A DNA stretch of 64,000 nt from an uncultured Candidatus Saccharibacteria bacterium (GTDB lineage: Bacteria > Patescibacteriota > Minisyncoccia > Phycocordibacterales > UBA9973): contig CAYPQU010000002.1 of assembly GCA_964412965.1 (NCBI GenBank), positions 26,004 to 90,003 on the forward strand. Direction: 5' to 3'. Every line of letters begins with the position of its first letter. Position 1 is the first letter of the stretch. This document shows positions 2,725 to 49,398 of the stretch, piece by piece. The notes under the pieces are model-generated. The model had not been told where the DNA came from, did no database searches, and saw only the letters and a list, made by a program, of their open reading frames with translations. The position numbers and the translations under genes are program-made.

Positions 2725-4062
2725 ATGAAAAAAATTTTAATGGAAGATATAAAAATTAATAAATCTTTTAGACAAACATCAGTTAGAGAAAAAAAAACAC
2801 CAGGAAAAAAAGAGTTGCCAAAAGAACCTATACAAAAAGTAAAGAGAAGAAACTCTGATGATTCTGATTATGTCCACTACTCAAAAAGAATGAGTTTAAC
2901 TCCAAGATCGTCTGACAAAAGACCAGTGAGGGGTTTTCTAAGAATTATATTTTTATTTTCTCTGGTTGGTGGTATAGCCTATTGGACAGGGGTATTTTTC
3001 AATAGTGCTTACGTAACCATTACGGCTAAACATCAAAACATTGAATATAAATCCAAGGTTTTTAACGCTGACAGAAAGAATGCTGCCAATGTCGTTGATT
3101 TTGAAATAATGATAGAGTCAGAAAAGAAATTAAAAAATTATATTCTAACAGAGAACAAGGAGGTATCTAGTAAGGCAACAGGAACTATCATTCTTTATAA
3201 CGAGTTTAGTACTAAACCAGAAAAATTATCTCAAGGAACATATGTTAGTGACCAAGATGGTAAAACATATCGATTGAATAATACCGTTACAATTCCGGGA
3301 TATAAATTAGATAAACAAAAGAAGATACCGGGCCAGGTAGAAGTTAACATAACTTCTTTTTTGGCTGGTGAAAACTATAATGGAACCTCTGAAAAATTTA
3401 CAGTTAATTCATTTAAAGGTACTACGAAATACAGCAAAATATATGGAAAGCTGAAGACAGAGTTGGTAGGAGGATTGCAAGGTATTGTTTATTATATAAG
3501 CGAGGAAGATAAAGCCAAGATCCAAAACATAGCTGAATCATCACTAAGAGAAGAGTTATACAGTAAACTAAAAGCACTTTTACCTTCCGGATATATTTTA
3601 TACCCCGAAGCTATTAAATTCAGTTATTTAATAGATGAAAACATTTTGTCTGAGACGGCAGAAGCTAAAATACCAATAGAAGGCAAGATTTCAGCTATTC
3701 TTTTGAAAGAAGATTCGTTAATAAAAAATGTTATTAGGGTGTCATTGCCAGAAGCAGATAAAAACGAAATTCCTGAAATAGTAATTAACAATATAAAAAA
3801 TCTTAAATTTAATTTTGTAACAGAAACAATAATTGATAAAGACACAGAAAACTTCCAATTTACTTTAACTGGTAATCTGGAAGCAGTTTGGAATCCTAAT
3901 AAGGAAATAATAAAAAGTAAACTAGCCGGTCTTCACAAAGATATGGTCTTGTCAGTTTTTAGAGAAAATAAGGGTATTACTAAATCTATGGTTAAGATTT
4001 TTCCACCTTGGAGCAAGTATATTCCTAAAAATCCATCTAAAATAAATATAAAAATTCAATAA
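2725..4062 (+). CDS. hypothetical bitopic membrane protein (basic N-terminus, one TM, ~350-aa extracytoplasmic domain)
   Basis: ORF directly after the FtsA/PilM-like gene with a 3-nt gap. Single hydrophobic helix FLRIIFLFSLVGGIAYWTGVFF. Confidence 0.3.
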   Translation: MKKILMEDIKINKSFRQTSVREKKTPGKKELPKEPIQKVKRRNSDDSDYVHYSKRMSLTPRSSDKRPVRGFLRIIFLFSLVGGIAYWTGVFFNSAYVTITAKHQNIEYKSKVFNADRKNAANVVDFEIMIESEKKLKNYILTENKEVSSKATGTIILYNEFSTKPEKLSQGTYVSDQDGKTYRLNNTVTIPGYKLDKQKKIPGQVEVNITSFLAGENYNGTSEKFTVNSFKGTTKYSKIYGKLKTELVGGLQGIVYYISEEDKAKIQNIAESSLREELYSKLKALLPSGYILYPEAIKFSYLIDENILSETAEAKIPIEGKISAILLKEDSLIKNVIRVSLPEADKNEIPEIVINNIKNLKFNFVTETIIDKDTENFQFTLTGNLEAVWNPNKEIIKSKLAGLHKDMVLSVFRENKGITKSMVKIFPPWSKYIPKNPSKINIKIQ

Positions 4063-33619: not shown

Positions 33620-33687
33620 GTTTGCTTTCTCTCGGACAAAAAATAAAAAACCTTTCGGCTTTTATTTTTGTGCCCGAGGTGGGAACG
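33620..33687. repeat. direct duplicate (~67 nt, ~95% identical) of the tRNA-Leu 3' end (15 nt) plus its downstream terminator flank
   Basis: gtttgctttctctcggacaaaaa(a)taaaaa(a/g)cctttcggcttttatttttgtgcccgaggtgggaa occurs at 33620-33687 and again at 33780-33845, the second copy being the true tRNA 3' end. Confidence 0.7.
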
Positions 33688-33829
33688 CTTCGCTTATCGC
33701 CGACTACATCGGCAGGTACTTTTCCACCTCGCTTCGCTCGTACGGAAAAGTCTTTCGATTCCCGCACAAAAGCAAAGCAGTTTGCTTTCTCTCGGACAAA
33801 AATAAAAAGCCTTTCGGCTTTTATTTTTG

Positions 33830-33911
33830 TGCCCGAGGTGGGAATCGAACCCACATCCCTTGCGAGACACGATTTTAAGTCGTGCGCGTATACCTATTCC
33901 GCCACTCGGGC
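33830..33911 (-). tRNA. tRNA-Leu (anticodon TAA)
   Basis: The minus strand GCCCGAGTGGCGGAATAGGTATACGCGCACGACTTAAAATCGTGTCTCGCAAGGGATGTGGGTTCGATTCCCACCTCGGGCA folds as a cloverleaf with a long variable arm and anticodon loop CUUAAAA. CCA is not encoded. A small bidirectional hairpin aagcc-gaaa-ggctt plus a T-run follows. Confidence 0.85.
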
Positions 33912-34140
33912 AAACAAAACATATAATATATTTTAAACAGCCGTTTGCCCTCGCGTCGGCCTCCTCCTTTCAGTCGGATAAAACATGAAGCAGTTCATCT
34001 TTTATCCACTCGGGCAAACAAAACATATTAAATGTTTTTAATAACAAAAGGTATTATAGCATAAAGATTTTTAAATAGGAATATTAGTTTTTATTTTTTA
34101 AATTTCTCAAAAGGCTTATTTTTTGATATAATCGACTCAT

Positions 34141-35556: not shown

Positions 35557-36260
35557 ATTTTAGTAGTCCGACTACTAAAATTTAAAATTCTACTTCTTCT
35601 TTTCTCTTTATGGTTTCAAGCCAAAGTGATTTTGCTGTTTTATAATAATCCTCTTTGTTTTTAAAATTACTTAAAACTATTGTTTTGTTACATATTCCCA
35701 CTGAGTCATTAGTATATTCGCACAGACTAGATTTACTAAAATCAGAAATAGTTTTAAGATTTTTATCTAAGTTATTAAAATTAACATATGCACTTAATTG
35801 TATTAAATATCTTTCGTCTTCTATTTGTTTTGATTTAAATTTTCCTTGAAAAAGCACACCAGATCTATCGTATTTTTCATTAAAATATCTAGTATAGCCA
35901 CCTATTCTCTGCATAAATTTTTCTATTCCATTATCTACAAGAGGGGATAAAATAAGATGAAAATGATTCTTGTTAATACAATATGCTATTATGGCTACTA
36001 AAGGTTTTTTAGTAGTCCGACTACTAAATTTTAACTTTTTCTTAAGATGTTGCTGAAAAATACTTTGTATTGGTTCTACTGTATTAAATTCTAATAAACT
36101 CAGAAAAAATCTATTGAGATCTTCTTTATCTATAATGATATCTCTTTTATCAGAACCTCTGTTATAAATATGATAATATTGTCCTATTTCAAATATATGA
36201 TTTCTCATATATATAATCATACCATACTTTTAAATTTTAGTAGTCGGACTACTAAAATTA
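35555..36260 (-). mobile_element. REPtron-like unit: an IS200/RAYT-type Y1 transposase gene flanked by inverted copies of a 23-nt REP-like palindrome
   Basis: ttttagtagtccgactactaaaa at 35558-35580, the inverted version ttttagtagtcggactactaaaa at 36235-36257, and a third same-orientation copy embedded in the ORF at 36008-36028. Confidence 0.6.
35582..36220 (-). CDS. IS200/IS605-family HUH (Y1) transposase-like protein, REP-associated tyrosine transposase (RAYT) type
   Basis: N-terminal YYHIYNRGSDKRDIIIDKEDLNRFFLSLLEF (RAYT YH.xNRG motif); HUH motif NKNHFHLILSP; conserved Tyr-containing C-terminal helix (RYLIQLSAYVNFN). Confidence 0.65.
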   Translation of the reverse strand: MIIYMRNHIFEIGQYYHIYNRGSDKRDIIIDKEDLNRFFLSLLEFNTVEPIQSIFQQHLKKKLKFSSRTTKKPLVAIIAYCINKNHFHLILSPLVDNGIEKFMQRIGGYTRYFNEKYDRSGVLFQGKFKSKQIEDERYLIQLSAYVNFNNLDKNLKTISDFSKSSLCEYTNDSVGICNKTIVLSNFKNKEDYYKTAKSLWLETIKRKEEVEF

Positions 36261-48090: not shown

Positions 48091-48366
48091 ATGGCAAAAA
48101 AGTTATATGTTGGAGGTCTACCTTACAGTACTTCTAACGACGAGCTAAAAGCTCATTTCAGTACAGCAGGAGAAGTTTCTTCTGCAACCATTATCATGGA
48201 TAAGATGACAAATCGCTCAAAAGGTTTTGGATTCGTAGAATTCGAAAACGATGCTGATGCTGAACAAGCCATCTCAATGTTTGACGGTAAAGATTTCGGA
48301 GGAAGAAAGCTTACAGTAAATGAAGCTCGACCCATGGAAGAAAGACCTAGAAACTTTCAAAGATAA
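48091..48366 (+). CDS. RRM-type RNA-binding protein (glycine-poor Rbp-like, ~91 aa)
   Basis: RNP-2 LYVGGL and RNP-1 KGFGFVEF. The ORF track starts at 47965, but that 42-aa extension is unlike bacterial RRM proteins; the region is better explained as a structured ~190-nt leader downstream of a TGATATAAT box at ~47884-47892. Confidence 0.65.
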   Translation: MAKKLYVGGLPYSTSNDELKAHFSTAGEVSSATIIMDKMTNRSKGFGFVEFENDADAEQAISMFDGKDFGGRKLTVNEARPMEERPRNFQR

Positions 48367-48372
48367 ACAAAA

Positions 48373-48405
48373 AACCACATATTTAAAGTATGTGGTTTTT
48401 TGTTT
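48373..48405 (+). terminator. intrinsic terminator after the RRM gene (accacata...tatgtggt plus T-run)
   Basis: Seen directly. Confidence 0.7.
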
Positions 48406-48457
48406 GCAAAATAATACTTTTTTTGTTATATTTTTAGAGTTAAATAATAAATTTAAT

Positions 48458-48491
48458 GCGTGTGTAGTTCAGTGGTAGAACGCTGTTCTGA
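48458..48491 (+). pseudogene. 5'-half copy of tRNA-Ile (acceptor 5' strand through anticodon-loop start), one SNP relative to the full gene
   Basis: GCGTGTGTAGTTCAGTGGTAGAACGCTGTTCTGA is identical to positions 1-34 of the full tRNA at 48552, except C31T. Confidence 0.5.
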
Positions 48492-48551
48492 GTTTTTATA
48501 AAAATAAATGGTTCATTCGTTAAAAATGAGAAAATAAATAGTTTCTTGAGT

Positions 48552-48623
48552 GCGTGTGTAGTTCAGTGGTAGAACGCTGTCCTGATAAGACAGAGGTCGA
48601 AGGTCCGATTCCTTCCACACGCA
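48552..48623 (+). tRNA. tRNA-Ile (anticodon GAT)
   Basis: GCGTGTGTAGTTCAGTGGTAGAACGCTGTCCTGATAAGACAGAGGTCGAAGGTCCGATTCCTTCCACACGCA folds as a cloverleaf. Anticodon loop CUGAUAA and variable loop AGGUC match bacterial tRNA-Ile(GAU). The T-loop TCCGATT has an unusual C55. Discriminator A; no CCA. Confidence 0.8.
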
Positions 48624-48667
48624 CTGAGGACATTATTTATTTTTCATTTTAACTCACTGCCATTTAA

Positions 48668-48706
48668 AAGACAGAGGTCGAAGGTCCGATTCCTTCCACA
48701 TGCACA
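48668..48706 (+). pseudogene. 3'-half copy of tRNA-Ile (anticodon 3' stem through acceptor 3' end), one SNP
   Basis: AAGACAGAGGTCGAAGGTCCGATTCCTTCCACATGCAC is identical to the 3' half of the full tRNA except C70T. It overlaps the first ATG of the downstream ORF. Confidence 0.5.
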
Positions 48707-49398
48707 ACATGATTCTTCAAGAATTACTATCTCAAAGAGACACTCAAAAAGAAGAGGTTTTTGTTCATTTTTTTAAAACAGGAAAAGGCCAGTATGGGGA
48801 AGGAGATCTCTTTCTTGGAATTAGTGTTCCTGAAACAAGAAAGATTGCTCTTAAATACAAAAATTTATCTTTAGAAAAAATACAAAAACTTTTAAATAAT
48901 AAGTACCACGAATGCAGGCTAGCTGCTCTAATGATTTTAGTTTACCAATTTAAAAAAGGCGACGACAATCTAAAAACAAAAATATTTAATTTTTACCTAA
49001 AAAATACTAAAAACATAAATAGCTGGGATTTGGTAGATTTGTCTGTTTACCATATAGTAGGGGATTATCTTCTAGGCAGAGATAGAAAAATTTTATACAA
49101 ACTAGCTAAATCTAAAAATATGTGGGAGCGCAGAATGTCTATGGTTTCAACTTTTGCTTTTATAAAAAACAGAGAACTTAATGATACCTTCAACATAACC
49201 AAAATACTTATTTCAGACAAAGAAGATCTTATTCATAAAGCTTGTGGTTGGATGCTAAGAGAAGCCGGCAAAAGAGTCTCAGAAAAAGAATTAACTAATT
49301 TTTTAGAGAACAATACTTTTAATATGCCTCGAACCATGCTCCGATACGCCATTGAGAGGTTGCCCGAACCTAAAAGACAATATTTCCTCAAAAAATAA
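48700..49398 (+). CDS. DNA alkylation repair enzyme (AlkD-like HEAT-repeat glycosylase family)
   Basis: FFKTGKGQYGEGDLFLGISVPETRKIA...HECRLAALMIL, plus a W/D-containing C-terminal repeat. The start may instead be the ATG at 48709. Confidence 0.65.
   Translation: MHNMILQELLSQRDTQKEEVFVHFFKTGKGQYGEGDLFLGISVPETRKIALKYKNLSLEKIQKLLNNKYHECRLAALMILVYQFKKGDDNLKTKIFNFYLKNTKNINSWDLVDLSVYHIVGDYLLGRDRKILYKLAKSKNMWERRMSMVSTFAFIKNRELNDTFNITKILISDKEDLIHKACGWMLREAGKRVSEKELTNFLENNTFNMPRTMLRYAIERLPEPKRQYFLKK

Follow-up and report, generated by a model that had tools for sequence, protein, structure and literature searches.

What does it mean for a complete tRNA gene to lie between the two halves of another copy of itself? 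The question is raised by a tRNA-Ile(GAT) locus in a 64,000-nt stretch, hereafter the window, of contig CAYPQU010000002.1 from an uncultured Candidatus Saccharibacteria bacterium (Patescibacteriota). In the answer proposed here, which carries a probability of about 0.6, the resident tRNA-Ile(GAU) gene was split after A35 by a 176-bp, gene-less cassette that bears a replacement tRNA between complementary arms. This account builds on direct observations of the anatomy of the locus, the ancestral position of its outer halves, its recurrence, the foreign alleles of inner genes, the decay of outer halves, and the compensatory maintenance of the arms.

The nested tRNA-Ile locus

The locus comprises two outer half-genes (A and B), two spacers that act as arms (X and Y), and an inner gene:

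48458–48491, + strand: outer 5′ half A, 34 nt, tRNA nucleotide 1 to A35, from local alignment and exact coordinates
48492–48551, + strand: left arm X, 60 nt
48493–48504, + strand: local hairpin h1 of X
48505–48512, + strand: helix 1 strand of X
48513–48519, + strand: unpaired conserved motif of X, TCATTCG (GGTTCGCTCG in most relatives)
48520–48540, + strand: helix 2 strand of X
48541–48551, + strand: tRNA-proximal pairing segment of X
48552–48623, + strand: inner complete tRNA-Ile(GAT), from ARAGORN and Rfam
48624–48667, + strand: right arm Y, 44 nt, complementary to X
48624–48633, + strand: proximal segment of Y
48634–48652, + strand: helix 2 strand of Y
48653–48658, + strand: unpaired conserved motif of Y, CTCACT (CTCGCTG in relatives)
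48659–48666, + strand: helix 1 strand of Y
48668–48705, + strand: outer 3′ half B, 38 nt, from A37 (nucleotides 37–73) plus one base after A73

ARAGORN and Rfam agree on a single tRNA-Ile(GAT) at 48552–48623/4 (73.4 bits), which is predicted to be the working gene; a gathering-threshold Rfam scan of the whole window returns two tRNAs only. The insert between the halves measures 176 bp (48492–48667) and contains no open reading frame (ORF). Neither A+X nor Y+B makes a tRNA, and A+X scores 16.8 bits in Rfam against a 29-bit cutoff. A, the inner gene, and B share one orientation, and each half differs from the inner gene by a single mismatch: T for C at 48487 in A (C31U, with U-G pairing retained) and T for C at 48701 in B (C70U, yielding G3-U70 and creating an ATG at 48700). 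T36 is missing from the outer copy. Alignment, ARAGORN, and Rfam thus confirm the layout that an earlier note had described from the letters of the window, namely a 5′ half, a full tRNA-Ile(GAT), and a 3′ half in one orientation with one substitution per half. The 17-bp inverted repeat of that note proves correct as to the complementarity of the spacers but too short, as X and Y pair across ~35 bp in three helical segments that reach the inner acceptor stem (U-1:A73, G-2:C74).

Ancestral site and recurrence of the insert

The gene order L31–RF1–x–RRM–[tRNA-Ile]–alkD–PPDK is conserved among relatives. One clean tRNA-Ile occupies the same position in L001–L003 (AlkD 91% identical), L007, and L024, which supplies the comparison with orthologous single-gene loci that had been proposed for this site. 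A and B are bordered in the window by sequence continuous with that around the clean tRNAs, i.e., the promoter region upstream and the alkD start downstream. A adjoins the same upstream flank as the clean tRNA of L001 and L007, and B adjoins alkD exactly as does the clean tRNA of L001, L007, and L024. The outer halves hold the ancestral gene site; therefore, 48492–48667 was inserted into the resident gene's anticodon loop and is bounded by A (nucleotides 1–35) and B (nucleotides 37–73), which together make up the target tRNA gene. L006 (AlkD 76% identical) has the same nested layout, with arms that are diverged yet homologous to X and Y.

The wider distribution was addressed by scanning species-representative genomes with a 58-nt tRNA core and metagenomes for a 3′ half not preceded by T36. 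The core matched in at least 119 Paceibacteria species, its invariance being partly by construction because the scan pattern demanded an identical core; the acceptor stems around it fall into 27 co-varying types. The metagenome scan returned six contigs, among them full nesting in L016, L011, and L012, a form with only tRNA-Y-B in L014, and a tRNA-Y-B form with an unrelated 5′ fragment in L013. A scan of the genome collection for a 3′ half without the preceding T36 gave no match, such that this pattern matched in metagenomes only.

The nested layout is found in independent assemblies, including an NCBI metagenome-assembled genome (MAG; L006), the JGI metagenome contigs L016, L011, and L012, and the GTDB MAGs L109, L027, L045, L050, and L122. 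By arm sequence, L006, L016, L011, L012, L027, L030, and L045 are fully nested members of the alpha family, to which the window belongs; full nesting elsewhere occurs in L122, in L109, and in the beta family (L050, L116, and L136). X and Y sequences are unrelated from family to family. In the ~120 Paceibacteria species scanned, about a dozen tRNA-Ile loci have a nested, one-sided (5′-only or 3′-only), or hybrid version, and these fall into several spacer families. Counted across projects and assemblers, the architecture recurs, with diverged spacers, in no fewer than 12 independent assemblies; therefore, the layout is not an assembly artifact, and it is well beyond chance.

A script flagged partial own-copies within 700 nt at 57 of 136 core-bearing loci, some of which are D arms of neighboring tRNAs. 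In a stricter test of 120 genome-scan sources, own-fragment copies accompany 31 of 117 tRNA-Ile genes and 10 of 66 other tRNAs. A search for distant displaced halves within 8-kb loci yielded one case, L051, which is probably unrelated.

The alleles of the inner genes bear on where the insert came from. In L045, the inner acceptor stem is GTGTCTG/CAGACAC and the outer one GAGCGTG/CACGCTC, with a compensated outer T stem (GATGG/CCATC). In L050, GCGAGTG/CACTCGC inside contrasts with GCGCGTG/CACGCGC outside, and in L027, the outer 3′ strand is CACACGC versus CACGCGC in the inner gene. The outer halves pair with each other, and so do the inner halves, in both L045 and L050, as would be expected had a cassette with an allele of its own entered a resident gene. 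As the inner allele differs from the split outer one in these three species, the insert came from elsewhere, and inserts of this kind appear to pass between species. Together with the position of the halves at the tRNA site of clean relatives, these foreign alleles support the possibility, listed in the earlier note, of a cassette flanked by inverted repeats and inserted at the anticodon loop.

An insert of this kind is framed by direct repeats. Recombination of A with the inner 5′ half, or of B with the inner 3′ half, would resolve it into tRNA-Y-B, A-X-tRNA, hybrid, or clean forms. Direct-repeat recombination thus predicts one-sided forms, as well as hybrids when the alleles differ, and both exist. 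L014, L013, and L072 are tRNA-Y-B forms, and L134 and L031 are A-X-tRNA forms. The Logan contig L010, whose AlkD matches that of the clean MAG L008 exactly, is a mismatched-acceptor hybrid in which a foreign 3′ strand is followed by Y and B. In L064, a second such hybrid, the 5′ strand is foreign and the displaced resident 5′ half lies upstream.

Several loci show further peculiarities. About 100 nt upstream of tRNA-Ile in L134, two tandem copies of a 5′ half plus a 17-nt spacer precede the gene, the outermost half having the acceptor strand GAGTGTG versus GTGTCTG; this arrangement suggests repeated events or unequal crossing-over. A C6-A67 acceptor mismatch (GGGCGCG / CACGCCC) is present in L110, L054, L069, and one more locus, in four species, and could be either tolerated or a fixed hybrid of two alleles. 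In the beta-family loci L050, L064, and L136, a partial Y-like sequence (..tactggga) lies 20–60 nt upstream of the inner tRNA, before a retained CCTGA, and pairs with the X arm into an anticodon-arm-like hairpin with the loop AUCCUGA.

Paired arms, expression, and rival explanations

The X:Y duplex of the window has a calculated energy of −29 kcal/mol. For the whole 249 nt, the predicted nested fold reaches −88.9 kcal/mol (z = −7.5), and none of 200 shuffles is as good. Most nested loci have leader–trailer duplexes of −21 to −39 kcal/mol. As a control, upstream and downstream sequences mismatched between loci give −11.7 ± 4.5 kcal/mol, and clean loci fall within the same range. The duplex of L045 is an exception among nested loci, at a background value of −13.4 kcal/mol. 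Across nine alpha-family sequences, 93.4% of X:Y cells are paired, with changes on both sides in 19 of 23 pairs; 0 of 500 shuffles match this co-variation, and slid controls are 35–47% paired. On each side of the stem lies a conserved unpaired motif, GGTTCGCTCG in X and AACTCGCTGCC in Y, the two running in the same orientation. The alpha-family loci inspected, together with L109 and L122, have a short hairpin after A; its sequence differs among them, and the L045 hairpin is weak.

When the window is compared with L006, four-fold sites prove saturated (0.40–0.46 identical), yet X and Y retain identities of 0.82 and 0.78, respectively. The outer halves of the window have 2 changes in 72 nt, and the nearest clean relative differs at about 30–36% of four-fold sites. 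Neutral debris is ruled out by the high identity of X and Y despite saturated four-fold sites and by the co-variation of the arms; as judged from these comparisons, either selection acts on the arms or the cassette is a recent arrival. Recombination scars at a hot spot, another suggestion of the earlier note, are accordingly a fair description of the context (31 of 117 tRNA-Ile genes and 10 of 66 other tRNAs, as given above) but not in the sense of neutral debris, the arms being 78–82% identical and co-varying. One U-G pair is retained in 7 of the 9 alpha-family sequences, which leans weakly toward selection on X:Y as RNA rather than as hairpin DNA or recombination half-sites.

In the proposed scheme, the cassette is a mobile non-autonomous element, now or recently active, that would have entered the anticodon loop by a recombinase- or nuclease-dependent insertion. 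Such an insertion would be survivable because the cassette supplies its own copy of the essential tRNA. The features relevant to its expression are as follows:

48404–48432, + strand: promoter-like site upstream of A (TTGCAA, 17 nt, TATATT, with TG before the −10)
48709–49398, + strand: alkD-like DNA alkylation repair gene, outside the element (PF08713, Pfam E = 3e-59)

The promoter-like site is the sole one near the locus, and its sequence is kept in syntenic loci with and without the insert. Transcription would most likely start at this resident promoter and read A-X-tRNA-Y-B into alkD. With the only such site upstream of A, the inner tRNA would have to be cut from a transcript that starts with the dead 5′ half. 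The X:Y leader–trailer stem could stack on the acceptor stem of the inner tRNA, keeping its cloverleaf in register, and ordinary tRNA end-processing enzymes would then release the inner tRNA.

The window places the tRNA among genes for L25, L31, RF1, an RRM protein, AlkD, and PPDK (Patescibacteria). The 3′ half had been thought to supply the first ATG of the alkD-like ORF. The ATG at 48700 does exist, as a by-product of C70T, but homologue lengths favor 48709: the nine closest AlkD homologues longer than 227 aa (73–91% identity) have 229–233 aa, while two others have 238 aa and one 227 aa. The closest homologues are from Moran-, Nomura-, and Paceibacteria MAGs. The alkD start is likely to be the ATG at 48709 or one a few codons upstream. 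Exact-protein look-ups of the window AlkD, in its upstream-ATG form, and of a mis-started RRM ORF gave no match. At clean loci (L001 2990–3005; L007 2990–3003), the alkD ATG lies 4 nt past the tRNA 3′ end with no promoter or Shine-Dalgarno sequence in between, and within 48620–48711 of the window, the dead 3′ half keeps this spacing. It may be that alkD is co-transcribed with the tRNA and that tRNA 3′ processing leaves it nearly leaderless.

A further and more tentative step is to regard the cassette as a miniature “homing tRNA gene”, that is, a selfish tRNA plus a structured hairpin that perhaps invades the anticodon loop of the resident copy and spreads between Patescibacteria species, with resident tRNA alleles being replaced along the way. 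The hairpin, with its 5′ hairpin, long stem, and unpaired TCGCTCG / CTCGCTG, would be the recognition structure for a trans-acting enzyme.

Several points weigh against a mobile cassette. The alpha family has no linked recombinase, transposase, or nuclease, and no alpha cassette with cargo genes was found among the loci searched. In the 64 kb of the window, the cassette occurs just once, which sets it apart from typical miniature transposable elements; even with up to 3 mismatches allowed, Y has no second match there. The A/B junction overlap is 0, 1, 3, 4, or 5 nt, with T36 missing in the window, and this variability does not fit one simple cleavage chemistry. The connection of serine recombinases with the beta family is weakened by L145 and L146, which carry a tRNA–recombinase pair with no displaced half within 10 kb. 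In addition, template-switch correction of quasi-palindromes can also yield compensatory changes in inverted repeats without selection. Finally, vertical descent with repeated loss, during which the inner gene converts the outer halves, could fit the loci with identical alleles, the window included.

The strongest competitor, although improbable, holds that two separate attachment-site events took place: a 3′-half element (tRNA-Y-B) and a 5′-half element (A-X-tRNA), since shrunk to 44 and 60 bp. One-sided states are indeed common, on the 3′ side in L014, L013, L072, and L010 and on the 5′ side in L134, L056, L043, L031, L055, L131, and L070. L029 has layered 3′ replacements, the D-/T-loop GIY-YIG duplications described below are clearly one-sided, and the tRNA-Leu gene of the window has unrelated 5′ and 3′ fragment copies; tRNA gene fragments have also been ascribed to integrating elements in published work (PMC9897764). 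However, these one-sided states and hybrids are exactly the recombination products expected from the repeats of a nested insert. X and Y are complementary end to end and co-varying in almost every nested locus, including those of unrelated families, whereas pairing between two independent remnants would be unexpected, particularly beside the inner acceptor stem. Moreover, the tRNA is divided between A and B at very nearly a single point, and the inner alleles of L045, L050, and L027 are self-consistent, with both halves from one foreign allele.

An endogenous origin is less probable again. In this scenario, fold-back or template-switch synthesis, with the stems of the tRNA serving as short inverted repeats, mended a break or stalled fork in the gene and left an inverted duplication around a duplicated gene, the pairing of which quasi-palindrome correction has since kept. 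It would account for X:Y complementarity that runs continuously into the acceptor stem, U-1:A73 included; for the hairpin after A in L109, L122, L027, and L011, which includes the outer GATA and its complement, like a fold-back at a broken end; and for multi-base compensatory changes and matched indels in both arms, which fit copy-correction. However, the local flanks of clean loci are not the source of X and Y, and the same X/Y family occurs in hosts with differing flanks and acceptor alleles. The inner allele is unlike the outer one in three species, and the distribution among close relatives is patchy.

It is very doubtful that the outer halves act as a second, disrupted tRNA, with the inner tRNA inside an “intron” and, once it is released, X:Y holding two half-molecules together in the manner of archaeal split tRNAs, to be cut and ligated or to serve as a two-piece tRNA-like RNA. 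The nested fold is strongly favored, and both changes in the window keep pairing (U-G and G-U); these two changes carry no signal, as C>T at C-G pairs automatically leaves wobble pairing. The outer GAU anticodon is intact in L011, L109, L122, L027, and L045, with the break near 37/38, and the outer acceptor and T stems of L045 and L050 are internally complementary. However, position 36 of the outer copy is G, with T36 missing, in the window, L006, and L016, such that no tRNA-Ile is possible. In L012, G34 is gone and two mismatches break the D stem; in L030, the outer halves are nearly erased while the arms still pair; and in L027, L050, and L122, they are interrupted by GC-rich hairpins, with X:Y again persisting amid truncated, mutated, or interrupted halves. 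Joining the outer exons thus fails to give a canonical tRNA, and the GAA anticodon once expected of the joined product finds no support. On this sequence evidence, the outer halves are displaced remnants without a predicted decoding role.

The splicing chemistries that such a tRNA might use were rejected individually. For bulge-helix-bulge splicing, the grounds are the modeled geometry and the decay of the outer halves: the predicted fold leaves 13–17 unpaired or hairpin nucleotides on the 5′ side of the junction and 2–3 nt on the 3′ side, and two opposite-strand 3-nt bulges 4 bp apart are found neither in the predicted fold nor by inspection. A tRNA splicing endonuclease is not known from bacteria. 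For a group I intron, a permissive Rfam scan of 48300–48850 gave no ribozyme match at E ≤ 10. The 5′ junction falls after A35 (CCTGA|G) in the window, L006, and L016 and after A37 in L011 and L109, not after U, and the small hairpin following A provides no U-G at the junction. The split or permuted-tRNA-like arrangement considered in the earlier note is dropped on these grounds.

GC-rich palindromes (cccgcccg...cgggcggg and ccccgcc...ggcgggg) occur in the pseudo-halves of L027, L122, L056, L070, L051, and L030, where they sit at the D loop or T arm and resemble the left-end hairpins of GIY-YIG inserts. They may be remnants of such inserts.

The weakest alternative, a chimera assembled from repeat-containing reads of one tRNA gene, has in its favor that several short Logan contigs break inside this hard-to-assemble tRNA and is scarcely credible given that 12 or more independent assemblies share the architecture with spacers that have diverged, which also disposes of misassembly as a refutation. 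Those Logan breaks were in turn rejected as evidence for nesting, since their positions are off the repeat boundaries.

Candidate movers and relation to known systems

A screen of the window for serine recombinases and GIY-YIG proteins, which did not extend to tyrosine integrases, gave no homologue. One transposase is encoded:

35582–36220, − strand: IS200-like Y1 transposase ORF, 212 aa (PF01797, E = 1.3e-8)

Its distance is 1.7 kb to tRNA-Leu and 12 kb to tRNA-Ile. A REP/REPIN-type repeat moved by this transposase was considered and set aside, with no second Y in the window and no link shown.

GIY-YIG ORFs (PF01541, E = 1.8e-15) lie within tRNA-Ile duplications of the D-loop/T-loop class in L074, L041, and L029, and 4 of 5 GIY-YIG matches among the loci and the window fall less than 400 nt from tRNA-Ile. 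L074 (tRNA at 3130) and L041 (tRNA 318–389, − strand) have nucleotides 1–15, two GC-rich hairpins, the ORF, and the full gene in succession. In L029 (3697–4023, − strand), the full gene is followed by the ORF, a 3′-end fragment, and then an older Y-B layer, giving three stacked 3′ layers.

Large serine recombinase genes adjoin tRNA-Ile in L134, L064, and L110. Among Patescibacteria, large serine recombinases give 6044 matches (E ≤ 1e-30), and their 3′ ends habitually enter a convergent tRNA gene. Of the 120 best homologues (P0121–P0240), five terminate in tRNA-Ile translated in antisense; the C-termini of most others read ...CDPTGNRT[PR]I..., which, as inferred from the peptide only, would be the antisense of the T arm of another tRNA. 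The link between serine recombinases and the beta family is only suggestive: a role as the mover of this family was downgraded after L145/L146, and the L064 recombinase is collinear with the resident side. Scans of viral contigs gave no match to the 3′-junction pattern or the tRNA core, and the 5′-junction pattern matched only unrelated phage tRNA-Val genes.

In the window, tRNA-Leu(TAA) (33829–33911, − strand) is likewise bracketed by copies of its own fragments (33639–34041). On its 5′ side, a 36-nt repeat, composed of 26 nt of upstream flank and tRNA nucleotides 1–10, surrounds a ~68-nt insert. On its 3′ side, a ~67-nt repeat, composed of the last 15 nt of the tRNA and a terminator-containing flank, surrounds a ~92-nt insert, which starts with an inverted T-arm-like fragment. 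Elsewhere, a conserved GC-rich element of ~130–150 nt lies ~+50 to +240 nt past tRNA-Ile in L077, L096, L099, L112, L123, L028, L041, and L046. It starts with an inverted T-arm copy (ggaaggaatcgga...) and ends in a second tRNA 3′ end, which co-varies with the local acceptor stem. This T-loop-class element corresponds to no Rfam family at the gathering threshold, and the right ends of this element and of the L029 GIY-YIG insert are similar.

If the cassette is what it is proposed to be, essential tRNA genes of these streamlined bacteria would be routinely overwritten by tiny insertions that bring their own replacement. Such insertions would provide a route for horizontal replacement of tRNA alleles, in which acceptor-stem variants cross species by way of transient mismatched hybrids. 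The conserved hairpin with its unpaired motif would offer a handle for finding the enzyme that moves it. For annotation, half and hybrid tRNAs in Patescibacteria MAGs should be taken as real; they can break assemblies or be miscalled as pseudo-tRNAs or introns.

The phrase “nested tRNA” had no match in the literature searched, the coverage of which was incomplete, and novelty is hence provisional. With that proviso, none of the works compared here describes a hairpin-flanked, gene-less cassette that places a whole tRNA inside the tRNA's own gene. MITE-like (miniature inverted-repeat transposable element) and REPIN-like elements are likewise short and non-coding, with terminal inverted repeats, one long hairpin with compensatory changes, and presumably movement in trans. 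In contrast, the present cassette has a tRNA as cargo and a single target, which is its own gene; it is single-copy in the window, with a junction duplication of 0–5 nt.

Group I introns at position 35/36 of tRNA-Asn and tRNA-Asp have been described in Patescibacteria, with no mention of nested genes (Nakagawa et al. 2026, PMC13011429). The phylum, the loop, and nearly the position (after nucleotide 35) are shared, and in both cases the host gene escapes standard tRNA finders. However, the insert studied here lacks a ribozyme signal, its junction follows A35 and not U, and its 176 nt include a 72-nt tRNA.

A mobile-element model has been put forward for the disruption of archaeal tRNA genes (Sugahara et al. 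2012, PMC3293823). There, too, the halves are parted at the anticodon loop, complementary sequences lie beside them, and a mobile cause is proposed. Archaeal halves are functional and are joined by the bulge-helix-bulge endonuclease and a ligase, whereas the bacterial halves described here are decaying and have a full gene between them. If the proposed origin is correct, it would provide a bacterial parallel to the debated mobile-element origin of archaeal disrupted tRNA genes.

Elements that integrate into tRNA genes reportedly fall into anticodon-loop and T-loop sublocation classes, a distinction attributed to Williams in 2002. It is well known that integrative elements using tRNA attachment sites leave tRNA gene fragments behind (PMC9897764). 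Partial-tRNA direct repeats around an insert, breaks at the anticodon or T loop (and here the D loop), and preservation of an intact gene are common to both. Classical integrative elements, however, span kilobases, encode an integrase, carry only the 3′ part of the tRNA, and rebuild a hybrid gene. The present insert, by contrast, is minimal; it carries a whole tRNA and displaces the two halves of its target.

In functional terms, the nearest analogue is the tRNA-dependent lysogeny of actinobacteriophages, in which the prophage disrupts an essential host tRNA and brings its own isotype-matched tRNA, which makes up for the loss (Guerrero-Bustamante & Hatfull 2024, PMC10865867). In both systems, the target is not rebuilt at the junctions, and a same-isotype tRNA is carried. 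The lysogeny system employs full prophages, a tyrosine integrase, and a common core of ~10 bp, whereas the cassette described here is a geneless 176 bp in a Patescibacteria host, with its tRNA bracketed by complementary arms and no integrase linked to the family. If the proposal holds, this locus would represent a minimal version of the “disrupt the gene, bring your own tRNA” strategy that has so far been known only from whole prophages.

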